DNA of 64,000 nt from Alphaproteobacteria bacterium (GTDB taxonomy: Bacteria; Pseudomonadota; Alphaproteobacteria; GCA-2731375). The DNA lies in the NCBI GenBank assembly GCA_965225945.1, contig CBDDBZ010000018.1, forward strand, positions 23,207-87,206, read 5' to 3'. Numbering within the stretch: position 1 is the first letter of the stretch; the number at the start of each line of letters is the position of its first letter. This document shows, in pieces, positions 49,862-54,290 of this stretch. Below the pieces are notes generated by a model. The model was not told the DNA's origin. It made no database searches and saw nothing but the letters and a program-made list of their open reading frames with translations. Position numbers and translations under genes: made by a program.

Positions 49862-50281
49862 AACCCAACCTCCTGACGTTTGTCGGTGGCGATGAAAAAC
49901 CGCGCTTAGATGGTGATTTCAGCGACATCGGGCATCGTGGCGCTGTAGCTGCGTGGTTTGCAGGCGGGAGTTGGCTCGGCGCAGCGGTGGGTAAGTAGCC
50001 CGCCGCAGCGACCGCCAAGAGTCTGGCGGCGGCGGGCTGCTTATCCACCGCGGGCGGGCGTCTCGATTCCTGTTTTGGCTGGCTGGCGGCGGCGGTTCCG
50101 CGGACCTGACAAGGGGAGCCGCGGGAGTACACTCGGGCCGCTGAGAACGATGCGGCGCCGGCCCCGTTTGCTTGCTGGCAACGACCGGCACCGCACCCCC
50201 CGAGCCATGCAAGGCACGACCCATATGCGCAGTATCGTGCGGGTTTGGGCGTGGGTCCACCCCGTTCTCATCGGCTGCGCG

Positions 50282-50722
50282 ATGAAGAACACCGCCCGCC
50301 TGTTCAACTGCGCCTCGTGCCATCAACAGGTGGTTCTCTGCCGGCACTGCGACCACGGCAACATCTACTGTTCACGGAGCTGCAGCGATCGGGTGCGCCG
50401 GCGATCGCAGCGCCATGCCGGGCAGCGCTACCAGAACAGCCGGCGGGGCCGTCACAAGCATGCTGAGCGCCAGCGGCGCTATCGCGAACGCCGGCGGCGC
50501 CGGACGCCGGTGAATCGGCGCCGCGGGCAGGAAGTGACGCATCACCCTTTGACCGCCGCGCGGCGGCGTCCTGTTGTGGTGCGGACGCCGGCAGGGCGTC
50601 CCGGAACACGGCCCTTCGGGCACGAGCGGCCCGCCAGGGTCTTCCGCTGCGATCGCTGCGGCCGGTTCTGCGGGCAGGCGGTCTATCCGGGGCTGCGCCC
50701 GACGGGAAAGGGGGTGAGATGA
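50282..50722 (+). CDS. Cys/Arg-rich putative zinc-binding protein
   Basis: CASC, CRHC, CSRSC, CDRC..C and a basic helix; ATGA overlap with istA. Confidence 0.72.
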
Positions 50723-52224
50723 CCATCGACAAGGAGACCCGCGCGGAGATCCTGCGCCTGTATCACGTCGAGAAGTGGACGGTCGGCACGATCACACGCC
50801 AGCTCGGCGTGCATCGCTACACCGTCGAGCGCCTCCTCACCGCGGCCGGCGAGCCCCGGGACGCGAGGTCGCCCAGGCCGTCGATGATCGATCCATACGT
50901 GCCGTTCATCGCCGAGACGCTGGCATCCTGGCCGACGCTGCCCGCCAGCCGGCTCTACCAGATGGTGCGCGAACGCGGCTATCCGGGCGGCGGCGACCAC
51001 TTCCGTCATCTGCTCAGCCACTTCAGGCCCAGGCCCGTGGCCGAGGCCTATCTGCGCCTCAAGACCCTTCCCGGCGAGCAGGCCCAGGTCGACTGGGGAC
51101 ACTTCGGCAAGGTGACGATCGGCCGCGCGGAGCGCCGCCTGATGGGCTTCGTGATGGTTCTCAGCTACTCGCGGCGGATCTTCCTGCGCTTCTACCTCGA
51201 CGCCGGGATGAGCAACTTCCTGCGCGGCCATGTCGAAGCCTTCGAGGCGTGGCAGGGCGTGCCCCGCGAGCTCTGGTACGACAACCTGAAGAGCGTCGTG
51301 CTGGAGCGCCGCGGCGCCGCCATCCGGTTCAATCCCCGGATCCTCGACCTCGCCGGCCACTACCACTTCCTGCCCAAGCCCGTCGCGGTCGCGCGCGGCA
51401 ACGAGAAGGGGCGCGTGGAGCGGGCGATTCGCTATGTCCGGACCAGCTTCTTCGCCGCCCGCCGGTGGCGCGATATCGACGATCTCAACGCCCAGGCCCT
51501 GGCCTGGTGCCACGGCATCGCCGCCGACCGCCCCTGGCCCGAAGACCGCTCGATCACCGTGCGCGAGGCCTTCGAGCGGGAACGCGGCTCTCTCATCGCG
51601 CTGCCCGGCGATCCCTTCCCCGACCACGACCGGGTCGAGGTCGCCATCGGCAAGACCCCCTACGCCCGCTTCGATCTCAACGATTACAGCGTGCCGCACA
51701 CCCATGTGCGGCGCACCCTCGTCGTGGTCGCGACGCTCGACGAGGTGCGCATCCTCGACGGTGTGGACGTCATCGCCAGCCATCCGCGCAGCTTCGACAA
51801 GGCGGCCCGCATCGAGAACCCCGAGCACATCGCCGAGCTGGTCAGGCGCAAGAGCCATGCCCGCCGCCTTCGCGGCCAGGACCGGCTGGTCCAGGCCGCG
51901 CCCAACAGCGAGCGCCTGCTCGCCGAGGCCGCCCAGCGCGGCGGCTATATAGGCGCCACCGTCGCCGCCCTGTTGCGCCTCCTCGACGCCTACGGCGCCG
52001 CCGAGCTCGAGGCGGCCATCGACGAGGCCCTGAAGCGGGACGTTCCCCATCCCAACGCCGTGCGCCTGAGCCTGACCCGGCGGCGCGAGCTGCGGCACCA
52101 ACCCCCGCCCATCCCCGTCGAACTGCCCGGCGATCCGAGAGTGCGCGACATCACTGTCCGCGATCACGACCTCGTCGGATACGACGGGCTGGCCGGCGAA
52201 CCCGAGGAGGACAGCGAGCAATGA
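50719..52224 (+). CDS. istA: IS21 transposase
   Basis: [23 protein letters not shown], Mu-like C-terminal NDYSVP. Confidence 0.94.
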
Positions 52225-53009
52225 ACGATACCCTCATGGGCCGTGCCCGGGCGCTCGGCCTGCACGGCCTCGCCGCCCACTGGGGCGAGGTCGCCGGGCA
52301 TGACTGGCCCGCTGCGCTGGTCGCCTGGGAAGAGGAGGAACGGCGAAGCCGCAGCCTCAAGCGCCGCCTCGGCGACGCCCGCCTCGGACAGTTCAAGCCG
52401 CTCGCCGACTTCGACTGGGCATGGCCGCGCCGCTGCGACCGCATGGCCGTCGAGGATCTCATGAGCCTCGAGTTCCTCAACGAGGCCGCCAACGTCGTCC
52501 TGGTCGGCCCAAACGGCGTCGGCAAGTCGACCATCGCCGCCAATATCGCCCACCGCGCCGTCCTCGAGGGCCACACCGTGCGCTTCGCCACCGCGGCCAG
52601 CATGCTCGGCGAGCTCGCCGCCCTCGACAGCGACACCCTGCTTCAGCGCAGGCTGCGCTTCTACGCCCGCCAGCACCTGCTGGTGATCGACGAGGTCGGA
52701 TACCTGTCCTACAGCAACCGCCATGCCGATCTGCTGTTCAACATCGTCTCCAGCCGCAGCCAGCAGAACTCCACCATAATCACCACCAACCGGCCCTTCG
52801 CCGAGTGGGGTGAGGCCTTCCCCAACGCCGCCTGCCTCGTCGCCCTGGTCGACCGCCTCGTCCACAACGCCGAGATCATCGCCATCGACGCCGAGTCCTG
52901 GCGCCGCAAGGAGGCCGAGGAACGCCAGAAGCAGCGCAGCGCCGAGCGCCGCCGGCGGCGAGCCGGCAAGGCCGGCGCGCAGGACCGCGGGGAACCGCCG
53001 CCGGCGTAG
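52221..53009 (+). CDS. istB: IS21 helper ATPase
   Basis: [38 protein letters not shown] overlap with istA. Confidence 0.94.
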
Positions 53010-53011
53010 CC

Positions 53012-53902
53012 ATGGATGGTCCCCGCCTCTGGGACCGGCGGGTGCGGGCCGAGGCCCTGCGAGGCTATCCCCTCGAAGACGTCGTCCGCCGCCTCGGCTA
53101 CCGCCGCGATCCCACCGATGCCGCGCGCTGGAGGCGTCCCGGATCCGTCGTCAGCATCAACGGCTTTATGTTCTACGAACATCTGCGCGGCGGGGGCGGA
53201 GCGATCGACCTGGTAATCCATGCCTGCCGGTGCACCGTGCCCGAGGCCCTCGGCTTCTTCTCGGAACTGCCGTGCCGTGACCGGTTCCCGGCCGATCGCC
53301 ACCCGAAGCCGCCGTGCCCGGACCGCCACTGGCCCGCCATCCAGAGCTACCTCGTCGAGCAGCGCGGCCTCGCGGATGTGCTCGTCGCCCTGTGCCGCGA
53401 CCTCGGCTTGCTCTACGCCGACCGCCACGGCAACGCCGTGTTCGTCCGCCGAAACGCGGCCGGCGAGGCTCTCGGCGCCGAGATCGTCCCTGCCGCGGCG
53501 CCACGCCGCCTCGCGCCGACCGGCGCCGCCGCGCGCGGCGGCTTCTGGATGTCGTGGGAACCCGACTGGCCGAACTCCGTCATCCTCGCCAAGAACGCAA
53601 TCGACGCCCTGTCGGTCCTCTCCCTCCACCTCGTCCCGGCCGGGCGCAAGGGATGCGCCGTGGTCTCAACCGGCGGCGCCACCGCAAGCCTCCCCGAATG
53701 GATCGAGGCCTGGAACCCCGGCCGGATCTTCTGCGCCTACGACGCCACCCGCCAGGGCGATGACGCCGCGGCACGGCTCATCCGAAACGACAGCAGGGTC
53801 GTCCGCCTGCGCCCTGCCCTCGACGGCCTGGACTGGAACGACATGCTCATGCGCGACCGCGCCGGCGAACCGCTCCAGATCGATGACCGGCCCCTCGACT
53901 GA
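53012..53902 (+). CDS. DUF3991 + Toprim-like (primase-related) protein
   Basis: GGGAIDLV, YLVEQRGL...LLYADRHGNAVF, AIDALS, CAYD, DWNDML. Confidence 0.75.
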   Translation: MDGPRLWDRRVRAEALRGYPLEDVVRRLGYRRDPTDAARWRRPGSVVSINGFMFYEHLRGGGGAIDLVIHACRCTVPEALGFFSELPCRDRFPADRHPKPPCPDRHWPAIQSYLVEQRGLADVLVALCRDLGLLYADRHGNAVFVRRNAAGEALGAEIVPAAAPRRLAPTGAAARGGFWMSWEPDWPNSVILAKNAIDALSVLSLHLVPAGRKGCAVVSTGGATASLPEWIEAWNPGRIFCAYDATRQGDDAAARLIRNDSRVVRLRPALDGLDWNDMLMRDRAGEPLQIDDRPLD

Positions 53903-54290
53903 ATAGCCACAGCGCGAAACAAAATCAGCCAAGCCCAAAAGCATCCCGTCAGCCAACCGCCACCGACCGCTCAAAAAGAGCACCATATAAGCGCACCCTG
54001 GAACCACCGCTAACATGACGTTCCAGGCACTCTATCACTAATGCATACAATTCACGAATTGAGCCTATGAGTTTGCGTAAGAGTTAAGCCGACAATTGCA
54101 GTCATGCGCGCGCAGGGATGCGCTGAGGTGTGATAATTGCCTATTTTACAAGGCGTTTGTGGACGGTGCAAGAGCCGATTACCATGACAACCGTGCGCAC
54201 GGATGCGCAGAGTTTGTAATCCTGATGATTCCCATGCGATTCCCAGTATGATATGGTGCTTCCCATTGCCGGACACACCGGGGATCCGCC

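Follow-up and report, generated by a model that had tools for sequence, protein, structure and literature searches.

Insertion sequences (IS) of the IS21 family serve as a model for AAA+-controlled transposases and are described as two-protein systems. The stretch of alphaproteobacterial DNA analysed here, 64,000 nucleotides long and called the window throughout, holds a member of this family with four genes in the order ORF1-istA-istB-ORF4 (ORF, open reading frame): the transposase IstA and its helper ATPase IstB are preceded by a small cysteine-rich protein and followed by a protein related to DnaG-like primases (Table 1). The question that this locus raises is whether the two additional genes belong to the transposition machinery or are its cargo. 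Our preferred answer, to which we would give a probability of roughly 0.55, is that ORF1 and ORF4 are integral, co-evolving accessory genes of an active branch of IS21, in which ORF4 has become non-catalytic.

Table 1. Features of the four-gene element and of the IS1595-family element that it interrupts (window positions)
Feature	Position	Strand	Basis or remark
Four-gene IS21-family element	49881-54015	+ (ORF direction)	4135 bp; TGT start, ACA end
Left target-site duplication copy, TGACGTT (7 bp)	49874-49880	.	empty site in 52 IS1595 copies
Right target-site duplication copy, TGACGTT	54016-54022	.	read from sequence
Left terminal inverted repeat, starts TGT	49881-49915	+	ungapped match to right end 22/35
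Right terminal inverted repeat, ends ACA	53981-54015	-	read from sequence
Leader hairpin, 26-nt arms, 88% complementary	49984-50051	+	kept in L013
Sigma-70-like promoter candidate (CTGACA, 16 nt, TACACT)	50106-50133	+	sole one in element
Presumed 5' untranslated leader	50134-50281	+	nucleotide conservation
ORF1, 146 aa, Cys-rich and Arg-rich	50282-50722	+	no known family
istA, 501 aa, IS21-family DDE transposase	50719-52224	+	NF033546, 249.1 bits (cut-off 160)
istB, 262 aa, AAA+ helper ATPase	52221-53009	+	NF038214, 204.3 bits (cut-off 200); PF01695, 182 bits
ORF4, 296 aa, DnaG-like (DUF3991 + Toprim) protein	53012-53902	+	Pfam; AlphaFold2 fold search
IS1595-family host transposase gene	48923-49861	-	DDE_Tnp_IS1595, 3.1e-16
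Rest of interrupted IS1595-family element, 43 bp to its end	54023-54065	.	empty-site matches

A four-gene element of the IS21 family

The assignment to IS21, made in an earlier note from the letters of the sequence, is upheld: IstA and IstB both score above the cut-offs of their NCBIfam models, IstB additionally matches PF01695, and IstA displays the Pfam domains HTH_23, Mu-transpos_C_2 (77.6 bits) and rve, the last with 24 bits, under its cut-off of 32.6. The ends are imperfect inverted repeats of the TGT...ACA type with repeated internal motifs: GCGCTTAnATGGTG, which occupies positions 22-35 of the left terminal inverted repeat, is shared by both ends, and the right end has a second TCGGTGGCG motif about 50 nt further in. 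The first 12 nt of the left end are identical in all 21 copies of the element in its own genome. Target-site duplications (TSDs) of IS21 elements are usually 4-8 bp long, and those of 17 of these copies measure 5-7 bp. IS21 elements usually have two genes and a length of about 2-2.6 kb (ISfinder summaries); here there are four coupled genes in 4135 bp. The ORFs are co-oriented, with ATGA overlaps between ORF1 and istA and between istA and istB (52221-52224) and a gap of 2 nt between the istB stop and the ORF4 start, and they are bounded by a leader of 401 bp before ORF1 and a tail of 113 bp after ORF4. All the structural attributes that the earlier note had listed, namely the TGT/ACA ends, the 7-bp TSD, the four coupled ORFs and the leader of about 400 bp, are hence present in the sequence.

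The source assembly (6.27 Mb in 39 contigs) contains 21 full-length copies with the same termini and 99.2-100% identity. No direct repeat flanks four of them; among the 17 duplications, 16 have different flanks and one repeats the flank of the window copy. Joining the two flanks of the window copy with a single copy of the TSD yields an empty site that has 52 uninterrupted matches across the junction in the genome, which proves insertion into an IS1595-family element; the uninterrupted joint (4142 bases skipped) was also recovered in contigs of three public runs. As the copies are near-identical, full-length and mostly flanked by TSDs, all four genes move as one unit, which bears out the earlier claim that they entered the IS1595-family element together; the pattern goes far past what chance would give. 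The element is an autonomous, recently active IS21-family insertion sequence. By a strict test of ORF integrity all four genes are intact in 13 of the 21 copies, ORF4 in 18 and ORF1 in 20; foreign inserts lie inside ORF4 in two copies and the other 19 are uninterrupted. No tandem (IS)2 junctions were found in the assembly. Four RNA-labelled runs yielded one contig of 4171 nt that covers the whole element and others that cover parts of it.

Several peculiarities of individual copies may be recorded here. A second copy (G000:C37:75401-79541), the variant of 4141 bp, interrupts an IS1595-family element at the corresponding position, again with TGACGTT duplicated: either the nested pair was mobilised as a whole or insertions favour this site. 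A 6-bp insertion at window position 53188, present in 14 of the 21 copies and in the RNA-library contigs and absent from the window copy, adds two residues to a Gly-rich loop of ORF4. In the two copies with inserts (G000:C39:304481-308870 and G000:C27:58997-63443) the breaks in ORF4 lie no more than about 70 bp apart; the inserts measure roughly 250-330 bp, and one consists of fragments of a different repeated element present in this genome.

ORF4: a DnaG-like protein with a degenerate active site

ORF4 matches DUF3991 (6.5e-9) and Toprim_2 (1.1e-4) in Pfam and a 'DNA primase' entry in PHROGs; a sequence-profile search of PDB chains returned no match. Its AlphaFold2 model (predicted local distance difference test, pLDDT, 84.2; predicted template modelling score, pTM, 0.82) was compared to the PDB with Foldseek, whereby the best neighbour was the zinc-binding and polymerase domains of Aquifex DnaG (2au3, E 5.7e-5), and further neighbours were the E. 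coli DnaG core, the mycobacterial, Bacillus and Staphylococcus DnaG proteins, T7 gp4 and Twinkle (7t8c, 7t8b). The matches to 2au3, 1dde, 3b39, 5w33 and T7 gp4 have E-values from 5.7e-5 to 1e-3 and a probability of 1.0, with modest TM-scores of 0.31-0.41. The fold search thereby leads to DnaG- and T7-type primases, in agreement with the primase-like nature proposed earlier for this protein.

The Toprim domain is typified by one conserved glutamate and a DxD motif. In ORF4, K194 stands at the position of the glutamate, and in D244-A245-T246 the second aspartate of the DxD is replaced by T246; the acidic residues D198, D244, D250 and D274 are retained. The complete E..DxD set is found in none of the 96 homologues with at least 55% identity, in 27/29 of those with 40-55% identity and in 72/75 of those below 40% (together 99/104). 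The intact branches have the glutamate in a ..ESAIDA.. and the DxD in a ..DADxxGD.. context, and they include an intermediate group (e.g. P0098, P0099 and P0109) that is 45-49% identical to ORF4. With two of the three Toprim acidic residues lost, a point absent from the earlier note, ORF4 is unlikely to act as a primase in this lineage; and since all close homologues share this loss and it is old, the gene must have persisted for a long time without the intact site.

The N-terminal domain contains a Gly-rich motif (GGGGAIDLV in the window) and has no conserved cysteine that could form a CHC2 zinc site, its only invariant positions being H70 and glycines. It aligns structurally with 2au3, including the zinc-binding domain of the latter, and the equivalent domain of a relative, L054, matches a DnaG-like PADLOC model. 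The protein ends, about 20 residues past the Toprim domain, in a conserved acidic, proline-rich tail. Despite the degenerate active site, 41 columns are invariant among 19 sequences, and the protein is full-length in homologues down to 55% identity from metagenome-assembled genomes (MAGs) labelled as several phyla. The ratio of nonsynonymous to synonymous substitutions (dN/dS; NG86 estimates, approximate in view of the G+C-rich genome) is below 1 for ORF4 in all four comparisons; for the other genes it amounts to 0.17-0.28 (IstB), 0.36-0.40 (IstA) and 0.27-0.46 (ORF1).

ORF1: a small cysteine-rich protein

ORF1 has no match in Pfam, NCBIfam, PHROGs or PADLOC. The homologues recovered number at least 218 and are 80-256 aa long; no Pfam domain occurs in any of them, and the few named ones are entered as 'hypothetical protein'. 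Across this family an N-terminal CxxC-x6-CxxC-x6-Cx3C motif and a C-terminal CxxCx3C motif are conserved, with C10, C13, C20, C23, C30, C34, H60, H87, C123, C126 and C130 invariant or nearly so, and an Arg-rich stretch lies between these residues. The AlphaFold2 model (pLDDT 71.7) begins with beta-hairpins, continues with two long Arg-rich helices (32-74) and a linker that is disordered, and closes with a small beta unit at the C-terminus. Structure searches with it found nothing significant, the best hit being the YacG zinc finger with an E-value of 1.6; of the structure predictions that the earlier note had suggested, that of ORF4 gave a DnaG-like fold and that of ORF1 no significant structural neighbour. 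ORF1 is more widely spread than ORF4 and is kept in plasmid relatives that lack the latter. ORF1 is probably a small zinc-binding protein that would bind nucleic acid, as a regulator or as a cofactor at the element ends.

Linkage of the primase-like gene to istB

A metagenome scan with the ORF4 alignment gave 405 relatives, of which the best 80 loci were analysed together with four genome loci (84 in all); the two peptide patterns on which the scan relied and the restriction to the best 80 introduce a bias into this sample. Among the 72 loci with at least 300 bp of upstream sequence, istB lies directly upstream on the same strand in 65. Where at least 3300 bp were available (38 loci), 32 display a five-gene arrangement and two the four-gene arrangement, the remaining four being L046, L056, L063 and L081. 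The five-gene order is: a Cys-rich (zinc-finger) gene; a ParB/KorB-like gene (Pfam KorB 1.8e-5 and HTH_ParB 3e-5; PHROGs ParB-like 1.1e-5); istA; istB; and the DUF3991/Toprim gene. In three proteins, P0250, P0241 and P0001, IstB is fused to the primase-like domain. When both proteins are compared with their L054 counterparts, the percent identity of IstA correlates with that of the primase-like protein at r = 0.94 (n = 37, the kin not being independent).

These five-gene elements (e.g. L054 497-4890, L051, L055, L061, L066 and L096, among others) resemble the element of the window in the order istA, istB, DUF3991/Toprim after a Cys-rich first gene and in being discrete units: copies in differing contexts share 4.8-4.9 kb inside inverted repeats of 40-90 bp that contain a twice-repeated motif. 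They differ in the extra ParB/KorB-like gene, the intact Toprim residues, ends that begin with CGT and an IstA only about 26% identical. No TSD was seen at the approximate borders of the eight elements whose ends were read. A complex prediction of IstB with ORF4 (alignments A5 and A2) gave a score of 0.00 (mark 0.32), which carries no weight either way.

Relatives of the four-gene element

The order ORF1-istA-istB-ORF4 recurs in three MAG contigs, two of Alphaproteobacteria and one of Pseudomonadales, with IstA 79-80% and ORF4 66-67% identical to those of the window. The gene-neighbourhood search that the earlier note had called for thus retrieves the four-gene order in MAG contigs and the five-gene order in most of the wider loci; with the ORF4-like gene following istB at the rate given above, its proposal of a distinct lineage holds. 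The next-closest elements, with IstA 62-64% identical, are on plasmids of Burkholderia and Aromatoleum, where they occur in up to six places per record. The closest annotated ones, on B. thailandensis plasmid NZ_CP010016.1 and A. aromaticum EbN1 plasmid NC_006823.1 (IstA 62.8-62.9%, IstB 63-64% identical), share with the window an ORF1 homologue that lacks an annotation and precedes istA (tblastn 6e-16 and 1e-10). Closest istAB relatives without both extra genes had been named as the outcome that would speak against the proposal: the close relatives carry both, and this next ring lacks ORF4 and retains ORF1. In a quick IstA tree the four-gene group is sister to these ORF4-less plasmid elements.

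Following istB, the two plasmid elements have ORFs of 70-71 aa (L126 4757-4972 and L127 4733-4945) with a short acidic, proline-rich tail like that of ORF4; no tblastn similarity between these ORFs and ORF4 was detected. A search for ORF4 in 400 sampled genomes of the phylum gave no match, and one in the 33 genomes of the order found it, apart from the source genome, in a single congener, whose copies are broken, suggesting that the element is rare among reference genomes.

The ORF4 family outside IS21

The seven of the 72 loci without an adjacent istB are three MobV relaxase-primase fusions and L056, L050, L049 and L048. L056 (1475-5458) encodes a 996-aa Tn3-family transposase (DDE_Tnp_Tn3, 5e-140) followed, after a gap of 36 bp, by a 320-aa DUF3991/Toprim protein, and is a second, replicative transposon family with the same primase-like partner. 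In L050 (3-1954) the ORF4-like gene lies behind an AAA_22 ATPase and in L049 (399-2405) behind a tyrosine recombinase, and in P0247 a DUF3991 domain is fused to a phage-integrase (tyrosine recombinase) domain. Other long ORF4 homologues are MobV fusions and giant helicase proteins; none of the 20 long homologues is a fusion with IstA. In 72,556 plasmid records the family is represented only by MobV fusions or free genes with 28-39% identity, the best matches reaching 32-39%, and in none of them does an ORF4-like gene adjoin istB; one free plasmid gene that was inspected lies beside type IV secretion system (T4SS) genes. The earlier description of DUF3991/Toprim proteins as typical of plasmids accords with these MobV-fused and T4SS-associated relatives. 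Together with the varied recombinase partners, they indicate that the module stems from plasmid transfer systems and has repeatedly been joined to DNA-moving enzymes.

One cluster of the family, that of P0099 (90% identity, intact active site), has members in MAGs that bear the labels Acidimicrobiaceae, Gammaproteobacteria, Spirochaetaceae, Synechococcus and Gemmatimonadota, a sign of either very recent cross-phylum spread or binning noise.

Possible roles and alternative explanations

In recent structural work IS21 is described as encoding two proteins (PMC12486865), and IstB as bending target DNA, activating IstA and being closely paralogous to the helicase loader DnaC, with a replicative copy-out/paste-in route proposed for the family and still an open question (PMC11208146). 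On our preferred reading, a single operon transcribed from the promoter in the leader would encode four translationally coupled proteins, of which IstA and IstB would perform the chemistry known from IS21: a DDE transposase activated on target DNA bent by an AAA+ protein. ORF1 would bind nucleic acid, either regulating expression of the element or assisting at its ends. The ancestor of ORF4 would have been a plasmid-type DnaG-like primase; in the five-gene elements the intact enzyme most likely primes DNA synthesis at the replicative (copy-out/paste-in) step, and in the lineage of the window ORF4 would most probably serve as a subunit without catalytic activity, for instance one that binds single-stranded DNA or a partner, with a structural or regulatory part. 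What the analysis demonstrates is that the unit is mobile, which genes it contains, how ORF4 folds, and that the extra genes are conserved, linked and, in ORF4, deprived of active-site residues; all the functional roles of ORF1 and ORF4 named here are inferred, and those in target choice, regulation or processing of intermediates that the earlier note had put forward are likewise conjectural.

Several observations weigh against this reading. The two closest annotated plasmid elements have no ORF4 homologue, the 70-71-aa ORF overlapping the istB stop in its stead, and the multi-copy state of such relatives implies that ORF4 is dispensable for that chemistry. As the four-gene group, canonical IS21 elements and the five-gene group join at one node of the IstA tree, the primase association need not have arisen only once. 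A profile comparison of ORF1 with the Cys-rich gene that opens the five-gene elements does not establish homology (hhalign probability 2.8%, E 0.016). Among the four genes ORF4 is under the weakest constraint, with dN/dS of 0.45-0.65 and 0.90 in the closest pair, where there are very few changes; of the 53 substitution columns found between copies, 26 fall within it, some of these beside inserts and maybe misaligned. Finally, the contigs from RNA libraries that match the element could stem from carried-over DNA.

An explanation that dispenses with any part in transposition is that ORF1 and ORF4 are passengers of plasmid origin in a 'transporter IS', that is, an IS whose passenger genes are unrelated to transposition. 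The plasmid-borne wider family of ORF4, as MobV C-terminal domains and as free genes beside T4SS genes, would fit this, as would the multi-copy elements with an IstA 62-64% identical that lack ORF4; PADLOC assigned no defence function to either protein of the window, so that this explanation gains no positive support from there. Cargo normally varies, however, whereas here the same gene follows istB in 65 of the 72 loci, diverges in step with IstA (r = 0.94), even where the identity of the latter has fallen to about 26%, and is coupled through start and stop codons, and ORF1 is retained even in relatives without ORF4; we therefore regard it as unlikely that the two are passengers. That ORF4 is instead a decaying, functionless relic in the window lineage, leaving ORF1, if anything, as the accessory gene, strikes us as improbable. 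The catalytic glutamate and second aspartate are gone in 96/96 close homologues, the gene has the highest dN/dS of the four, and it is broken in 3/21 copies, twice by foreign inserts about 70 bp apart; against decay stand the full-length frame in 18/21 copies and in the homologues with at least 55% identity from several phyla, the 41 invariant columns in 19 sequences, the dN/dS under 1 in four comparisons, and the age of the shared active-site loss, since which the gene has long been kept. It is very improbable, in our estimate, that ORF4 remains an active primase by means of other acidic residues and primes the element's own DNA synthesis: a confidently modelled DnaG-like fold and the retention of D198, D244, D250 and D274 speak in its favour, but the substituted positions are the very hallmarks of the Toprim domain, are kept with few or no exceptions throughout the other branches (99/104), and are accompanied by an N-terminal domain lacking the conserved Cys/His set for zinc.

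The preferred reading, in which ORF1 and ORF4 are accessory genes, can be extended to a broader proposal that we advance only tentatively: IS21 elements may have repeatedly recruited plasmid-type primases and form an as yet undescribed 'self-priming' replicative class, with the protein of the window now a non-catalytic transpososome subunit. Here the primase, encoded beside the DnaC-like IstB, would start synthesis on the transposition intermediate; the elements would also have taken up a zinc-finger protein, to which one large branch would have added a ParB-like one. If true, such a class would provide direct genetic support for, and a tractable test of, the replicative pathway that has long been proposed for IS21.

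Relationship to known systems

The element shares with canonical IS21 elements (IS21, IS5376) the passing of the family models, the istA/istB overlap, TG..CA ends with repeated motifs and TSDs of 5-7 bp; it is unlike them in having four genes in 4135 bp and a structured leader of 401 bp. Plasmid primases prime complementary-strand synthesis after transfer, and this is presumed for the DUF3991/Toprim ones. The plasmid DnaG-like primases possess the same DUF3991 + Toprim pair, with 28-39% identity to the IS-borne proteins, and differ in being fused to or partnered with a relaxase rather than a transposase and in their intact active site. Mu (MuA/MuB) and Tn7 (TnsABC with TnsD/E) likewise pair a transposase with an AAA+ matchmaker, and they encode further proteins that modulate the reaction; no homology of the Mu or Tn7 accessory proteins to ORF1 or ORF4 was found. 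Transposition of Mu is coupled to replication, for which it uses host restart proteins and the host primase, not one of its own.

Twinkle-type helicases, which are structural neighbours of the ORF4 model (7t8c, 7t8b), offer a precedent for a degenerate DnaG-like domain that is kept after catalysis has been lost; they differ in that this domain is fused to a helicase and serves an organellar system, with no mobile element. The IS excision enhancer IEE is described as a PrimPol-based protein that acts on copy-out/paste-in IS, and differs from ORF4 in having the archaeo-eukaryotic primase fold, in being encoded outside the IS and in promoting excision (bioRxiv 10.1101/2023.06.07.543989).

A search of the full-text literature turned up no IS21 element described as having accessory genes for primase, Toprim, DUF3991, ParB-like or zinc-finger proteins, although an ISfinder entry may exist, and DUF3991 appeared in that literature only in plasmid work. 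The IS21 family and its chemistry are known, and the accessory gene set, its breadth and the lineage with an inactivated primase appear to be new. A DnaG-like primase of the element's own, encoded right after the DnaC-like helper in a large conserved set of IS21 elements, points to a replication-linked step, for the testing of which the five-gene and window-type elements offer natural genetic material. In turn, an ORF4 with a dead active site that has long been kept and is still spreading (21 copies) suggests a second, non-enzymatic role. Because public annotation has these genes as 'hypothetical', 'DUF3991' or 'toprim domain', IS finders will set the borders of such elements wrongly.

Leader region

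The leader of the element is structured: the fold of 49975-50095 as RNA has a free energy of -74.6 kcal/mol (z = -4.4). The hairpin is retained in the relative L013 with one compensated pair (G-C to C-G), and in the relative L011 a different perfect palindrome takes its place. The promoter candidate is the one sigma-70-like site found in the element, against 0.2 expected, and both its hexamers are largely conserved in L011 and L013. Between it and ORF1 the nucleotide sequence (50134-50281) is more conserved in these relatives than the coding regions, and a 2-nt indel just ahead of the ATG of ORF1 speaks against a coding function. A consensus fold of the leader from only three sequences has 50 pairs, none of them compensated, and an Rfam search of the element gave nothing near the gathering score. 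The hairpin may act as a barrier or as an operator, and the remainder is probably a 5' leader.

Genomic neighbourhood

The insertion is situated 12 nt upstream of the start codon of the IS1595-family transposase gene. At the other end, the empty-site matches end at query position 343-344, and loose ends of matches lie at 54065 and 54067. The genome is crowded with IS: besides the 52 uninterrupted IS1595-family copies and the 21 four-gene copies, it has about 45 copies of another IS21 (window 42339-44559; G000:C18:65545-67765), whose IstA is 31% identical and in which tblastn found no homologue of ORF1 or ORF4. A paralogue of ORF4 with DUF3991 and Toprim domains and 63-67% amino acid identity is present in two copies (G000:C30:9313-10140, corresponding to L015 6008-7147, and G000:C38:323-1150) that do not adjoin istAB; the ORF upstream of it has a weak UPF0236 match (7e-8), and the locus could represent a further mobile element that carries a gene of this type. 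Finally, a tyrosine integrase gene (window 54291-55463; Phage_integrase 1.5e-23, Arm-DNA-bind_3 2.1e-14) begins about 225 bp past the interrupted IS1595-family element.

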